Translations under genes and position numbers: made by a program | Part shown: positions 1,500 through 11,329 of the stretch, in pieces | Layout of the letters: the number at the start of each line of letters is the position of its first letter | Numbering within the stretch: position 1 is the first letter of the stretch | Assembly: GCA_964614835.1 (NCBI GenBank) | Contig: CAZTNJ010000003.1 | Coordinates: forward strand, 1-42,503 | Reading direction: 5' to 3' | Origin: an uncultured Ignavibacteria bacterium | Lineage (GTDB): Bacteria > Zixibacteria > MSB-5A5 > UBA10806 > 4484-95 | DNA: 42,503 bases | Notes under the pieces: generated by a model | The model's database searches: none | Told to the model about the DNA's origin: nothing | What the model saw: only the letters and a program-made list of their open reading frames with translations

Positions 1500-1946
1500 C
1501 TATTGCCCGTTTTTCTTTTTCAACTTTAGCAAAATTTCCAAATCCTGCATATCCTTTGGGCGGCCAGCCGCCTGCTTCATCGTAATCAAATCATCCAGCG
1601 AAGGACAATATACAGGTATACCTTCTATTTGGTTCTGATTCTTGTTTTCCCATACCTTTTCAAATGTAACACCGGTTACAAATGGGTGAATATCCGTTTC
1701 AAGTTCATATTGGCGAATCAATATTTTCTTTTTTACCAATTCATCCAGAGTAATCTCCGTTAGATCGTAGCCGAATTTGGTAAGGGCCAATATAGTATTT
1801 CGAGCATTCTCGATAGTCGGTTCGATAAAAATATCGATATCCATTGTTGCGCGTGAATACCCGTACAAGGGAAAAGCGTATGCTCCTATTACCAGATAAC
1901 GAACTTTATGTTCGTTTAATAATCTCAAAAGGCTTTTTATGTCCAT
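1500..1946 (-). CDS. Nucleotidyltransferase-fold protein (minimal NTase, toxin-antitoxin-like family)
   Basis: N-terminus LLNEHKVRYLVIGAYAFPLYGYSRATMDIDIFIEP (G..A...G..R.T.DID motif) and C-terminus LDDLITMKQAAGRPKDMQDLEIL. Overlaps the upstream small ORF by 41 nt. Confidence 0.8.
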   Translation of the reverse strand: MDIKSLLRLLNEHKVRYLVIGAYAFPLYGYSRATMDIDIFIEPTIENARNTILALTKFGYDLTEITLDELVKKKILIRQYELETDIHPFVTGVTFEKVWENKNQNQIEGIPVYCPSLDDLITMKQAAGRPKDMQDLEILLKLKKKNGQ

Positions 1947-2088
1947 GGTCTATCATCATTCTCATAATTGTTTTACTGGCCGCAATCATCATCTTATAAC
2001 GCTGTTCAACAGTCAATGTCGCCTGATATTCTAACTCTAATTCAAGCTCATCGACTTTATCATCCGGGCCGATTTTGTAAATTGGCAT
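1906..2088 (-). CDS. Small partner protein of the NTase (60 aa, putative cognate/antitoxin-like component)
   Basis: Same strand as the NTase gene and overlaps it. ATG start. No motif recognised. Confidence 0.5.
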   Translation of the reverse strand: MPIYKIGPDDKVDELELELEYQATLTVEQRYKMMIAASKTIMRMMIDHGHKKPFEIIKRT

Positions 2089-2222
2089 TAGATTCGATAA
2101 GTTAGTGTTTTCTTATTACTTATTCACGGTAGATTAAGGTTATTTTGAAATTTTACTGTTTTTTGGAACTTTTTCCTAATTAATTCGTTAATTAAGTCGA
2201 AAAAATACTTGACAGAAAAGCT

Positions 2223-2263
2223 TTCCATTGTTAGGTTTTACTTAGTAAAACCTAACAATGGAA
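2223..2263. repeat. Perfect 19-bp inverted repeat with 3-nt loop
   Basis: TTCCATTGTTAGGTTTTAC-tta-GTAAAACCTAACAATGGAA. Every position from 2223 to 2263 was paired by hand. Confidence 0.9.
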
Positions 2264-2268
2264 TTGAT

Positions 2269-2323
2269 AAAGGATTGGTGTATCACCTAATAGGCGATAC
2301 CGCGGGGAAACCGCCAATCCTTT
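2269..2323 (-). other. Roughly 55-nt nested stem-loop element abutting the DUF3800 stop codon (terminator or structured RNA)
   Basis: A 10-bp closing stem AAAGGATTGG (2269-2278) / CCAATCCTTT (2314-2323) encloses an inner hairpin TATCACCT-aat-AGGCGATA (one mismatch) and a CCGCGG palindrome. It begins 1 nt after the TAA at 2325-2327. Confidence 0.45.
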
Positions 2324-2324
2324 C

Positions 2325-3080
2325 TTATTTATCTTCATCCATATCATTATCATCCATTATTCCCTGCTGACTTTTCAGTAATTTTATCCCATATTTAGTA
2401 TATTCATTTTCTTCGTCTTGATGAGAAAACTGAAATTCTTTAATCTGATCATAAAACGGCTTTAATTCGTTTCGATGTGCAAACTTATGCCCCACTATAT
2501 ATGCAATTAAGTCAGCTAGTTGAATCCCATAACATATGTTAGAGCTTACAAAATATGGCTCTGGAACTATCTGATTTAAAGAAAAACCTTTTTTTGATTT
2601 ATGGAAAAATCCACCGATTTGTTTAGATAATATTTCATTTTTTCTCATATCTTGAGAATCAAATATTAATATTCCCTTTTCATTTTCATTTATTTGGGAA
2701 CAACAAATATTAATCCTTTCAAATAAGTATATATAGCCTCTCGGTAATAAATATTCTTCTGCTGCGTCAATTTGTTCTTGGGTAGGTCTTTCTTCTATTA
2801 TTGCAAATGCGATGCCATTTTGCTGTCTACACAACCTAAGTATTTCGTTCGCGTAATCAGTATTTTTAGGATGTTTAATAGCCCTTGGATTTAATAGTAA
2901 TTGCCCTTTCAATTCAAATGAATAAGCTTCGTCGGCCTTCCAATAAATCTGATTTAAATTATAAATGCTCCTCGCCAAGGCCCTTAATATTTCTTCCTGA
3001 AAAGCTATGGCGGCAATTACGAAATATTCATTAGGATCATTTGGATTATAAGACCCGCTTTGATCTATATAAAAAATCAT
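2325..3080 (-). CDS. DUF3800 domain protein
   Basis: N-terminus MIFYIDQSGS and C-terminal GIQLADLIAYIVGHKF are typical DUF3800 signatures. GGAGG lies 8 nt upstream of the ATG at 3080, while the ORF track starts at a TTG at 3095. The gene is strongly AT-rich. Confidence 0.8.
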   Translation of the reverse strand: MIFYIDQSGSYNPNDPNEYFVIAAIAFQEEILRALARSIYNLNQIYWKADEAYSFELKGQLLLNPRAIKHPKNTDYANEILRLCRQQNGIAFAIIEERPTQEQIDAAEEYLLPRGYIYLFERINICCSQINENEKGILIFDSQDMRKNEILSKQIGGFFHKSKKGFSLNQIVPEPYFVSSNICYGIQLADLIAYIVGHKFAHRNELKPFYDQIKEFQFSHQDEENEYTKYGIKLLKSQQGIMDDNDMDEDK

Positions 3081-3139
3081 AAAACATTCCTCCAAAATTA
3101 TTGTTTATAATTTTCTCGATCATTTCATTATCAATAATC

Positions 3140-5151: not shown

Positions 5152-5442
5152 CTACATAAAATAGATATCGTTTATTTTCCCTTCGCCGATCCGGGCGGCA
5201 ATTTTTTTAAGGATTTCTTCTTTGAAAAAAACCAGTTCATTGCGCCAGGAGGCGTTAACTACTTTCACTTTTATTATATCTTTTTCAACTCTGACAGCGG
5301 TTGTTTTTTGGGCAAGAATATCTCCGACGATTTCAGGCCAATACGCCACCGCCATCTGTTTTTCGACTTTTTCGGCGATGCCAACCGATTTCAGCGATTG
5401 GCGAATCAAGTCGCCGATTTTAAAAGAATTATCTACACCCAT
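5152..5442 (-). CDS. DUF721 (DciA-like) protein
   Basis: KIGDLIRQSLKSVGIAEKVEKQMAVAYWPEIVG...VKVVNASWRNELVFFKEEILKKI matches the DUF721 pattern. It sits 18 nt upstream of gyrB, the usual position. Start taken at MGVDNS (5442), but an upstream ATG at 5475 is possible. Confidence 0.85.
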   Translation of the reverse strand: MGVDNSFKIGDLIRQSLKSVGIAEKVEKQMAVAYWPEIVGDILAQKTTAVRVEKDIIKVKVVNASWRNELVFFKEEILKKIAARIGEGKINDIYFM

Positions 5443-5486
5443 AAAATACTCTAAATGGAAAAAACCCCTTTCCATTTAGAACTAAT

Positions 5487-5628: not shown

Positions 5629-6780
5629 TTAGCAATACGATATAATCCGCCACTCTCCTAGTTTGTTAATTGCTTCAATTTCAGATTTATCCCGAACGAT
5701 TACCAGTAAATCCGATATTGAAAATCGCGATAAATCGATATCGTTTAAATGACGCCATTCGTTTTCGGGTCGCCATTCGCCCCCATTTTCGCCTTCGTTT
5801 TGGAAAAATGGTTTATCAGAATCGGCCAATCTTCTATATAATGATAACGGCCCATAGATCACCGGTCGAATTCCCGATGCCGCCGCCACTTGCCGCGTGA
5901 CCGCGATACCATACGGTTCGAAATTATAACGCACATATCTTTTCCGCCACGACATCAGAGACAACATATCTTTAGGGTGAAGGTTCGAGAAAGCCACTGC
6001 CTTTTGATTCTCTCGAATATTCCCGGAGGACGCATATATTCGTTTTGTTCGCAGGATATTGATTAATGAACCCAGGCCGCTATTTGGATATATGTCGGAT
6101 TCGGCGATATTGCGATAATAATCGCCGCGACTTTGCCCGGGCCAGGGACCATTTAGAGTATGAGTCCAATGGCAGATATGATCCCAATTGATATCAATCA
6201 ATTGTTGGCTTATAGTATCGGATTCGGGTGGAACGATTCGTTCGCTGGATTGTTTGAAATAGTTCGTTTTTAACTCATTGATGATTTCTTTGTTGGGGTG
6301 ACTGGCTATCAGTTTTTCCAGATTTCCGCCCGGGCGAATCGCTATCGGAATTAGAACATCGGCAATGTCAATAGCCAGCATGTCTCGTTTCGGCCATTCG
6401 GATTTCGGAGAGCGAGATTTAATAGTTGATTCATAGAAAAGCCAACCCGTTCTCTCGGGATTCAAGTTGAAATCGGTCGTTATTTCATCAATTTGGTTTT
6501 GGACAATGCGATCAGTATTTGATGGGCAGACAATAACTTGTCGGGCATCGGCCTTGGCGGCCGCCCAGATAGCCATCTCCCAGGTATTCATACCGACACT
6601 TGTTATGACTGTCCAATTGTGTCCAGCGGCATATTGGGCCGCCCGTATTGTATTTTGAACCCATTTATCTTTGCCGCAGGGGATTTTTCCTTGCCGGGAA
6701 TTGAGGATAACGGCGAGGGGAGATGCATCTATGCCAAATACCCCAATATATTTTATGTCCGATTTTTCGCGAAAACCCAT
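5629..6780 (-). CDS. Fusion protein: N-terminal DprA/Smf-like SLOG Rossmann domain plus C-terminal AbiGi-like domain
   Basis: The N-terminus parallels DprA: ..ILNSRQGK..GHNWTVITSVGMNTWEMAIWAAAKADARQVIVCP..WPKRDMLAIDIADVLIPIAIRPGGNLEKLI. The C-terminus parallels AbiGi-type proteins: CHWTHTL..LGSLINILRTKRIYASS..KAVAFSNL..FEPYGIAVTRQVAAASGIRPVIYGP..ENEWRHLNDIDL. ATG at 6780; the track uses a TTG at 6792. Confidence 0.75.
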   Translation of the reverse strand: MGFREKSDIKYIGVFGIDASPLAVILNSRQGKIPCGKDKWVQNTIRAAQYAAGHNWTVITSVGMNTWEMAIWAAAKADARQVIVCPSNTDRIVQNQIDEITTDFNLNPERTGWLFYESTIKSRSPKSEWPKRDMLAIDIADVLIPIAIRPGGNLEKLIASHPNKEIINELKTNYFKQSSERIVPPESDTISQQLIDINWDHICHWTHTLNGPWPGQSRGDYYRNIAESDIYPNSGLGSLINILRTKRIYASSGNIRENQKAVAFSNLHPKDMLSLMSWRKRYVRYNFEPYGIAVTRQVAAASGIRPVIYGPLSLYRRLADSDKPFFQNEGENGGEWRPENEWRHLNDIDLSRFSISDLLVIVRDKSEIEAINKLGEWRIISYC

Positions 6781-6944
6781 TAACAAGCTCAAATCTTAAA
6801 CTATTTGTTCGCGGACTTGCTTTACCCGTTTATTAGCATAATATAGCATCACTCGCGAGAAATCAATTGCCAATCATTCTCTTATTGACAACATAAAGCG
6901 TTTTAGATAATTTCACAGTCAATCTTATAGAAGGAATTGACGAA

Positions 6945-7688
6945 ATGAAATACGCGCTTTTATTCTGCCTGGTTCTTGTATCATTTACCGGCCTGATGGC
7001 CGACTCACTTTCGGAGGCAATCTATCGGGGAGATTCATTATACGCGCTTAACGACTATCCGGGCTCGATTAATGCCTATGAAAACGCCATCGCCGCCGAT
7101 ACACTTTCGGCGGAGGCCAACTGGAAACTGGCTCGAAGCCTGAATCTTCAGGCCGAACTTGAGCCAAAAGACAAGCAATTGGCGCTTTACGAAAAAGCGG
7201 CGCTTGCCTCCCAAAGGTGTATCGAGCAAGATTCGATGTTGGCCGAGGGGCATTTCCAATTGGCAAGGGCGCAGGGCAGAGTCGCTTTGTTTAAAGGGGT
7301 ATTTAAAAGCGCTTCGTTGGCCAAGCAGGTCAAAAGAGAGGCCGATAAAACGCTGTCGCTTGATCCAAAACATGATGGGGCATATCATATTCTTGGAAGA
7401 TGGAATCGGGAAGTTGCCCAAAAACCGAAATTTCTACGCTCGGCAATCGGTTTGGGGGAAGCCGACAAGAAAATCGGTCTGGAATGTTTCAGGAAGGCGA
7501 TAGAATTAAACCCCGAATATATCAACCATCATTTAGAATATGGCATTTCACTGGCGGATATAAACCAAAAAGATGAGGCGCGAACCGAATTCGAGGCCTG
7601 CCTTAAACTGCCGGCGCCCCGGCCACTGGATGTTAAGTACCAGAATGAAGCAAAAGAATATCTTGCCAGACTAACCCAAAAGGATTAA
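6945..7688 (+). CDS. Secreted TPR-repeat protein
   Basis: Signal peptide MKYALLFCLVLVSFTGLMA. TPR-like helices, for example AIELNPEYINHHLEYGISLADINQKDEARTEFEACLKL. Confidence 0.8.
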   Translation: MKYALLFCLVLVSFTGLMADSLSEAIYRGDSLYALNDYPGSINAYENAIAADTLSAEANWKLARSLNLQAELEPKDKQLALYEKAALASQRCIEQDSMLAEGHFQLARAQGRVALFKGVFKSASLAKQVKREADKTLSLDPKHDGAYHILGRWNREVAQKPKFLRSAIGLGEADKKIGLECFRKAIELNPEYINHHLEYGISLADINQKDEARTEFEACLKLPAPRPLDVKYQNEAKEYLARLTQKD

Positions 7689-10467: not shown

Positions 10468-11007
10468 TTATAGTCCTAATTCGTCTTTGGTGAATATCGG
10501 ATCGAATGGATATCCCCGGGCGGCGAAATTTTCGGATGCGCCCTGTTTCCGATCGACTAACGAAATTATCTTTGCGATTGTGCAACCAAGCGGCTTCACG
10601 GCCTCGATAGCTTTAAGCGCCGAACTCCCGGTAGTGGTAACGTCCTCGATTATCAGCACCCTGGCGCCATCCCGCACCGGCCCCTCGATAAGATTGCGAG
10701 TGCCGTGCCCCTTGGGCTCTTTGCGGACAATAAATCCATCCAGGTGCATTCCGCGCTGATGGGCTAGCGCTATAACCGCGCCAATTATTGGATCGGCGCC
10801 AAGGGTCAGGCCGCCCACCGCTTCGATGTTTTGTCCTTGAATCTTATCCAAAATGAGTTCGGCCATAAGCGCCAATCCTTCGGAATCCAGAGCCAGATAT
10901 TTCCCATTGATATAATAACTCGATTTTTGGCCGGAGGCTAAAATGAACTCCCCTCTCTTGACCGCTTTTTCCAAAAATAACGCCAACAGTCTTTCTCGTT
11001 TATTCAT
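10468..11007 (-). CDS. pyrE: Orotate phosphoribosyltransferase
   Basis: GEFILASGQKSSYYINGK and the PRPP-binding loop VLIIEDVTTTGSS. ATG at 11007 is preferred to the TTG at 11016. Confidence 0.92.
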   Translation of the reverse strand: MNKRERLLALFLEKAVKRGEFILASGQKSSYYINGKYLALDSEGLALMAELILDKIQGQNIEAVGGLTLGADPIIGAVIALAHQRGMHLDGFIVRKEPKGHGTRNLIEGPVRDGARVLIIEDVTTTGSSALKAIEAVKPLGCTIAKIISLVDRKQGASENFAARGYPFDPIFTKDELGL

Positions 11008-11329
11008 CCAAACCAACTTTCATGAAATTCCATTAATTATCAGGTCCTTAAACTTTTACATCAACATCAGCGCCATTAAAACACATTTACACTCTACTGG
11101 CAATTAAATTTAATCTATGCTTACTCGTATAATCATATGGTTGTTATAAGTCAATAATTATAAGCACGATACGGCCAACATAACATTAATAATGATTTAT
11201 GTAATATGCTGGTCTAATGGCTCGAGCCAATCGGCCGGTTTCAAACTGCAACAACCCCGTCTAACAACTTAATATCCATTATGATACGATACTAAAAAAT
11301 TGACCAATCACCGCCGAATTCGAATAAAT

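Follow-up and report, generated by a model that had tools for sequence, protein, structure and literature searches.

A DprA-like SLOG domain fused to an AbiGi-family, candidate ADP-ribosyltransferase domain in a widespread, unnamed bacterial protein family

What might a single protein do that carries a DprA-like Rossmann domain in its N-terminal half and a domain resembling the abortive-infection protein AbiGi in its C-terminal half? The question is raised by a gene at positions 5629..6792 (minus strand) of a 42,503-nucleotide stretch of DNA, hereafter the window, from an uncultured Ignavibacteria bacterium (GCA_964614835.1, contig CAZTNJ010000003.1, positions 1 to 42,503 of the forward strand; GTDB lineage Bacteria; Zixibacteria; MSB-5A5; UBA10806; 4484-95). 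An earlier note on this DNA, made from the sequence alone, had proposed a one-gene sensor and effector for use against phages. Our analysis leads us to favour, tentatively, a different reading, in which the protein would be a self-contained ADP-ribosyltransferase (ART) that depends on nicotinamide adenine dinucleotide (NAD+) and is targeted or gated by a DprA-like domain binding single-stranded DNA (ssDNA) or a nucleotide. The gene is divided as follows, with residues numbered from the TTG start of the 387-residue form.

5629..6792, minus strand: two-domain fusion open reading frame (ORF) of 387 amino acids from TTG, stop codon at 5629-5631, from the ORF list
6295..6771, minus strand: DprA-clade SLOG/Rossmann domain, residues 8-166, assigned by Foldseek and hhalign
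6196..6294, minus strand: poorly conserved interdomain linker, residues 167-199, from the alignment and secondary structure
5632..6195, minus strand: AbiGi-family, ART-like domain, residues 200-387, assigned by hhalign, Pfam matches of homologues and the structural model

The ORF is a real gene and not a chance one, since it has many full-length homologues and its AlphaFold model is confident (predicted local distance difference test score, pLDDT, 93.6; predicted template modelling score, pTM, 0.90). The pTM value suggests that the two domains pack as one fixed unit. The motifs quoted in the earlier note are all present in its translation. Translation probably starts at the ATG at 6780, giving 383 amino acids, because the homologues begin at the residue aligned to M5, which is conserved in at least 90%, and an ATG stands at that codon (ttg agc ttg tta ATG ggt).

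The fusion protein is a member of a large, widespread and unnamed family. A word-indexed protein search returned 102 homologues, nearly all full length and without a name; those with a named source come mostly from metagenome-assembled genomes of Zixibacteria. Acidobacteriota, Planctomycetota and Hydrogenedentota are represented among the protein matches as well. An exhaustive profile search over representatives of clusters at 50% identity gave 2,660 matches at E<=1e-3 and 1,461 at E<=1e-30, and each of the best 150 representatives covers essentially the whole profile. Among GTDB species representatives, the family occurs in many Zixibacteria, in Desulfomonilaceae and other Thermodesulfobacteriota, and in Latescibacterota, Omnitrophota, Poribacteria and Myxococcota. 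Each of the two domains falls in a known superfamily, and for the fusion itself no description was found in the literature, although the SLOG survey of Burroughs et al. 2015, which lay outside our coverage, may list it. This agrees with the earlier suggestion that the architecture is uncharacterised. PADLOC and NCBIfam scans of the window protein gave no match, and sequence and profile searches of the PDB with the window protein, the family profile, the C-terminal domain profile and the member P0093 returned nothing relevant. A match to human cytomegalovirus UL131A (E 0.06-0.5, over the HWT..PGQ..YY stretch) was taken as chance.

Residues ~200-387 had been described as AbiGi-like, and profile comparison bears this out: judged by its sequence, the C-terminal domain (C-domain) is a divergent homologue of AbiGi (PF10899). 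A search with the C-domain profile brought in further homologues, and two of these, P0323 (28.6 bits) and P0338 (32.1 bits), score above the AbiGi gathering threshold of 22.4 bits; two members of the family alignment match AbiGi weakly. Moreover, a tblastn search of P0338 against plasmids found a 195-residue Burkholderia ORF (E 8e-6; L086:2929-3513), a stand-alone domain that scores 35.8 bits on Pfam AbiGi, and hhalign aligned the C-domain profile of the family with this protein at a probability of 96.4% (E 1.2e-9). The motifs L-x-x-IL, VxFT, PYGI, PxxY and E-x-EWR are common to the two, and the 'FLAHFTK' at the Burkholderia N-terminus is the counterpart of H208-W-T. Within the family alignment, the C-domain is better conserved than the N-terminal domain (N-domain).

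Compared with AbiGi of the lactococcal AbiG system, the C-domain shares H-[FW]-T, VxF[ST], PYGI, PxxY and ExEWR. It differs in an insert of ~25 residues (GPWPGQ...YY) after motif I, present in the family relative to the Burkholderia protein, and in its fusion to a DprA-like domain. Furthermore, the fusion gene has no abiGii partner and no two-gene operon in the 83 loci surveyed, and it is chromosomal and conserved within lineages rather than plasmid-borne. Some homologues appeared to be stand-alone C-domain proteins; several of these begin inside the SLOG 'PVSIRAGGKLEKL' motif and were set aside as truncated gene calls, not a free-standing domain.

The Burkholderia gene has a setting of its own. 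At L086:2929-4567, on a 3.2-Mb replicon of Burkholderia stagnalis, an HNH endonuclease gene lies ~300 bp downstream of the AbiGi-family gene, and the record carries no annotation for this stretch. This pair may represent a two-gene arrangement different from the lactococcal AbiGi-AbiGii.

The likeness to AbiGi implies a probable ADP-ribosyltransferase, which is the most informative point on mechanism and was absent from the earlier note. AbiGi has been listed as a poorly studied ART-like family resembling DUF2971, DarT and Tox-ART-HYD1 (PMC12522546). The candidate ART elements of the C-domain are given below, with conservation computed over 233 full-length members of the family.

6160..6171, minus strand: H208-W-T-H211 on strand beta1, candidate ART motif I (H 100%, T 97%; matches AbiGi 'HFTK' and DarT 'HYIT')
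5908..5922, minus strand: F291-E-P-Y-G295, the best-conserved block in the family (E292 100%; AbiGi shares 'SPYGI')
5854..5856, minus strand: Y313 in RPVIY, on a strand, candidate ART motif II (100%; aligned to AbiGi PAFY)
5752..5766, minus strand: E343-N-E345-W-R347, candidate ART motif III, ExE (E343 98%, E345 and R347 100%; AbiGi 'EREWR')

H208, E292, Y313, W340, E345 and R347 are thus conserved in 100% of members and E343 in 98%. By prediction, H208 falls in the strand at 205-209, Y313 in that at 312-314, and E343-x-E345-W-R347 at the strand of 345-349. An H-x-T on beta1, a tyrosine on a strand and an E-x-E-W-R, read from the alignment and the predicted strands, correspond in layout to ART motifs I, II and III. 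The C-domain model is confident (pLDDT 94.7), and nine of its 16 top Foldseek matches, all weak, are ART folds (KptA/Tpt1 seven times, the rifampin ART Arr once and exotoxin A, ExoA, once); they are supportive of an ART fold, not conclusive. On this pattern we lean, by a little, towards the C-domain using NAD+ to transfer ADP-ribose. The 'antitoxin' label that Pfam gives to AbiGi is not experimental, because AbiGi and AbiGii are each non-toxic in E. coli (PMC3985639).

Turning to the other half of the protein, the earlier description of residues ~1-165 as following the DprA/SLOG pattern holds up. A Foldseek search with the full model gave 19 PDB matches at E<=1e-3, all of them SLOG proteins, led by Helicobacter pylori DprA (HpDprA; 4ljr, E 4.4e-6) and followed by MCP, YpsA, Streptococcus pneumoniae DprA, LOG and ShosA (8zva, 5.3e-4). 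These matches belong to the N-domain, since the C-domain modelled alone recovers none of them. Against an alignment of 24 genuine DprA proteins, hhalign aligned the family profile over 150 columns (probability 88.8%, E 2.5e-6) and paired NSR with GSR, TSxG with SGGA, RD with RN, and RPGG with the G-G motif. Against the single E. coli Smf the probability was 2%, yet the motifs paired as expected.

Pfam places the N-domain further off. The window protein has no match to PF02481 (DNA_processg_A) at E<=10, and PF02481 is matched by five of 67 relatives, all distant members, one of which passes the threshold (the long-form P0093, 34.3 vs 29.6 bits). The window protein also has a faint LDcluster4/SLOG match below threshold (E 0.028), which cannot separate DprA from other SLOG clades because the precomputed Pfam matches of canonical DprAs list both PF02481 and PF18306 (LDcluster4). 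Taken together, the comparisons place residues ~8-166 in the DprA clade of SLOG domains, with a pocket that is conserved; at the level of Pfam they are not a DprA.

This pocket bears on what the domain might bind. HpDprA contacts ssDNA through R52, R143 and R170, and the equivalent residues of ShosA are required for ssDNA binding (PMC12961424). We mapped the HpDprA residues by aligning E. coli Smf with the 4ljk chain in HMMER (offset +4) and chaining the result to the hhalign alignments. R52 maps to R33, conserved in 85% of members, and R143 to R136, conserved in 99%.

6694..6699, minus strand: S32-R33, equivalent of the DprA G-S-R motif (HpDprA R52); S 98%, R 85%
6382..6387, minus strand: R136-D137, equivalent of the DprA R-N motif (HpDprA R143); R 99%, D 100%

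With S65-x-G67 and R153-P-G-G156 (R153 conserved in 89%), these residues make up the conserved pocket of the N-domain. The fusion protein thus resembles DprA/Smf (PF02481) in its Rossmann/SLOG fold and in keeping two of the three ssDNA arginines, the equivalents of those in the G-S-R and R-N-R motifs. However, it has RD in place of RN and RPGG in place of SGS, and it begins ~25 residues before beta1, without a SAM domain; in long-form relatives, an N-terminal extension of ~100 residues stands where DprA has this domain. As the earlier note had said, the DprA winged helix is missing; the C-terminal half is the enzyme-like, AbiGi-like domain instead.

Could the protein nevertheless be a plain, divergent DprA for natural transformation, with its winged helix replaced by a non-catalytic interaction domain? 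DprA is its closest relative in fold and in profile, one long-form member passes PF02481, and two ssDNA-binding arginines are kept. In Desulfomonilaceae, moreover, the gene is flanked by competence genes. There (L069-L084) the block comprises a divergent ComEC gene, RodZ, a 119-residue ORF with no Pfam match, the long-form family gene (~500 residues, with ~100 extra N-terminal residues that have no Pfam match) and an A24 prepilin peptidase. Against this stands the genome of locus L045, where the family gene has a canonical DprA gene (L045:2717-3730) 6 kb upstream of it; since a canonical DprA is also encoded there, the family is not simply the DprA of that organism, and the two coexist in at least one genome. 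The C-domain is the part conserved best: its H, Y, E, E and R are invariant, lie on predicted strands and make a catalytic-type pattern, and it is homologous to an ART-like family. The window protein also fails Pfam DprA. We regard a plain DprA as quite improbable.

The same pocket can be read as catalytic. In such a two-step enzyme, the SLOG domain, acting as a LOG-like N-glycosidase or on derivatives of ADP-ribose, would work in series with the ART-like domain to make or destroy a soluble nucleotide signal, and there would be no nucleic-acid target. R-P-G-G-N-L-E resembles the PGGxGTxxE of LOG as much as the SGS of DprA, D137 is invariant where DprA has an asparagine, LOG and MCP structures are significant in Foldseek, and SLOG and ART are both NAD+-utilising superfamilies (PMC7824862). 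Yet E159, the glutamate of PGG-x-x-E, is conserved in only 44% of members, the Foldseek E-value of DprA is lower than that of LOG by about two orders of magnitude, and the neighbourhoods scanned contain no associated Nudix, Macro or NADAR genes. This makes a two-step enzyme very unlikely in our view.

We thus keep to the ADP-ribosyltransferase with a DprA-like targeting or gating domain as our preferred reading; what follows is what we infer of its biochemistry and biological role. The DprA-like domain would bind ssDNA and so target or gate the C-domain, which would consume NAD+ to ADP-ribosylate its target. That target might be one of the bases of the ssDNA, in the manner of DarT, or else an ssDNA-bound protein, for example RecA or SSB. 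The protein would then control or mark ssDNA intermediates in replication, in repair, or in incoming or foreign DNA, and it would not be a mobile abortive-infection module. Targeting or gating through ssDNA binding is the more tentative part of this proposal, a possibility that we hold somewhat short of even. Two kinds of genomic setting fit the ssDNA theme: the position of the gene between ComEC and the prepilin peptidase in Desulfomonilaceae, and its position just upstream of dciA-gyrB in five loci of the subclade of the window protein.

Two known systems help to shape the proposal. ShosA, the DprA-like antitoxin of ShosTA, offers a precedent for a DprA-like domain recruited outside transformation, as a module responsive to ssDNA and RecA, and it is among the Foldseek matches given above. 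It differs in acting in trans with a phosphoribosyltransferase (PRTase) toxin, ShosT, whereas the fusion protein carries an enzyme of another class in cis, and the fusion gene has no ShosT-like neighbour. DarT (PF14487), the thymidine ADP-ribosyltransferase of DarTG that acts on ssDNA, is our proposed working analogue, as an ART acting on ssDNA with an N-terminal H-x-T...IL motif like that of the C-domain. In the fusion protein, in contrast, recognising ssDNA would be the task of a second domain fused to the ART-like one. Membership of the DarT family itself was considered and rejected: neither the window protein nor the C-domain homologues match Pfam DarT, and direct profile comparison with a genuine DarT showed no similarity.

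Several observations weigh against our preferred reading. The link to AbiGi is indirect: the window protein has no match to Pfam AbiGi, the matches of P0323 and P0338 are limited to profile positions 23-78 of 185, and Pfam AbiGi matches overall reach only positions about 23-86. Both this link and that to DprA run through profiles and intermediate sequences. For the fold of the C-domain, Foldseek gave no significant match (best E 0.67, template modelling score about 0.26), and for AbiGi, too, a 2026 review reports no match in the PDB; it lists the AbiG mechanism as unknown (PMC13064643). With DarT, hhalign of the C-domain gave no alignment, a weak test as it involved a single genuine DarT sequence, and a conserved macrodomain partner of the DarG type, expected for a DarT-like DNA ADP-ribosylase, was not found. 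On the side of the N-domain, the third ssDNA arginine of DprA, R170, falls at a variable position near K160/L161, and the conserved pocket could as well bind a free nucleotide, as other SLOG proteins do. Finally, the competence-gene setting is confined to one family and may be mere local synteny.

The genomic neighbourhood bears most directly on the proposal of the earlier note. In a one-gene abortive-infection system like Thoeris with its ThsA, the SLOG domain would sense a phage-induced nucleotide, such as an NAD+ derivative, and switch on the AbiGi-like effector, so that the cell is killed or arrested. The N-domain does match ligand-binding SLOG proteins (MCP, YpsA, LOG and the SLOG of ThsA), with the faint LDcluster4 match besides, and AbiGi originates in a lactococcal abortive-infection system. 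ThsA of type I Thoeris (SIR2-SLOG) likewise unites a SLOG domain and an NAD+-using effector domain in one polypeptide. However, the effector of the fusion protein is ART-like and not SIR2, and no ThsB/TIR partner accompanies it. Its SLOG domain is also much closer to DprA: the SLOG of ThsA is a weaker Foldseek match (about 5e-3, vs 4.4e-6 for HpDprA), which places the N-domain nearer to ssDNA-binding DprA than to a ligand sensor of the ThsA kind.

To survey the context, ORFs were called and clustered in the 83 loci. No neighbour is conserved across them, in keeping with the description of the gene as solitary; the cluster most often next to the gene is present in 10 loci and resembles a multi-pass membrane protein (its counterpart in locus L005 matches Pfam LPG_synthase_TM). 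Within a subclade the gene order is stable, and the genes concerned are housekeeping ones, with settings such as TPR gene-dciA-gyrB, glycosyltransferases with an LPG synthase, and YbbR with TsaD. In the subclade of the window, gyrB lies within two genes downstream of the family gene in five loci. The neighbours in Acidobacteriota and Planctomycetota loci are likewise ordinary housekeeping genes. PADLOC applied to 148 neighbour clusters and the 10 longest neighbours (158 neighbour proteins) returned scattered matches, mostly to generic kinase- or ATPase-type models. The sole exception is a genuine DarT-DarG pair directly downstream of the gene in one of the 83 loci, from Candidatus Latescibacter anaerobius (L056:11263-12988; DarT PF14487, 8.7e-34, and a DarG-like macrodomain gene). 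The macrodomain there belongs to the separate DarT, and none was found near any other family member in the neighbourhoods scanned. No TIR or SIR2 was seen among the best 25 families listed in the neighbour scans, and a scan of viral contigs yielded zero relatives of the family.

These results speak largely for core rather than variable regions as the home of the family, and they leave the claim of a defence-island sensor-effector unsupported, with no conserved partner in the loci surveyed and no relatives on viral contigs. For a Thoeris-like system one may count the Latescibacter locus and a small low-GC insertion ~2.5 kb away in the window; against it count the lack of a signal-generating partner (TIR or cyclase) or any other conserved neighbour, the absence of a PADLOC match for the protein itself, and the stable housekeeping synteny in Zixibacteria, Acidobacteriota and Planctomycetota. 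We consider such a system unlikely.

What would the preferred reading mean if correct? Bacterial DNA ADP-ribosylation is known to date mainly from DarT-type toxins with dedicated antitoxins, and AbiGi, although known since 1996, is still without a mechanism. More than 1,400 clusters at 50% identity couple a DprA-type fold to an AbiGi-type, ART-like domain in core regions of poorly studied phyla, and the family offers a tractable single-protein system for what AbiGi-type domains do. It could also be used to ask whether effector enzymes generally rely on DprA-like domains to sense ssDNA, a role recently demonstrated for ShosA. The boldest form of the idea is a chromosomally fixed, antitoxin-less, DprA-guided nucleic-acid ADP-ribosyltransferase that modifies a base on captured ssDNA, whether incoming, replicating or damaged. 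We think this specific version doubtful. Were it true, DNA ADP-ribosylation would no longer be a toxin-antitoxin curiosity but, in Zixibacteria and several other phyla, a housekeeping or immunity mark found across the lineage, and the AbiGi family would gain its first biochemical activity. If DNA is the substrate, ADP-ribosylation of DNA, whether reversible or irreversible, would reach beyond the biology of toxin-antitoxin systems.

In the window, the immediate surroundings of the gene are as the earlier note had them, with a divergent TPR gene on one side and, on the other, a promoter-like site followed by dciA (DciA being DUF721, PF05258) and gyrB.

6945-7688, plus strand: divergent TPR gene beside the fusion gene, from the ORF list
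6838..6866, minus strand: weak promoter-like site TTGATT-17-TATTAT upstream of the fusion gene, from a consensus scan alone
5515-5487, minus strand: dciA-gyrB promoter-like site TTGCAA-17-TATAAT, TG-extended, with an overlapping GCAA-N4-TTGC palindrome
5482-5448, minus strand: dciA-gyrB leader hairpin with a 16-bp stem

The dciA promoter, the hairpin (with paired base changes in the close relative L001) and the ATG at 5442 are kept in two relatives. The start of dciA is therefore probably at 5442 (96 amino acids) and not at 5475. Because dciA-gyrB has a promoter-like site and a leader hairpin of its own, conserved in these relatives, the fusion gene is most likely a separate transcription unit.

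Further along the window, a PRTase gene (10468-11016, 182 amino acids) was considered as a ShosTA-like partner. It is four genes away, is conserved in a close relative and looks like the orotate-PRTase type, and we rejected the pairing by inference from these features.

On the far side of gyrB, between gyrB and TerB, the window contains a low-GC stretch (~1500-3095; 32% GC, vs about 45-49% in the adjacent gyrB region). It carries genes for a DUF6036/DUF2204 nucleotidyltransferase (1500-1946, minus strand) and a DUF3800 protein (2325-3095, minus strand), and two small, unrelated ORFs occupy this place in the close relative L001. The stretch has the look of a small variable insertion and may be an islet of the toxin-antitoxin or defence type.

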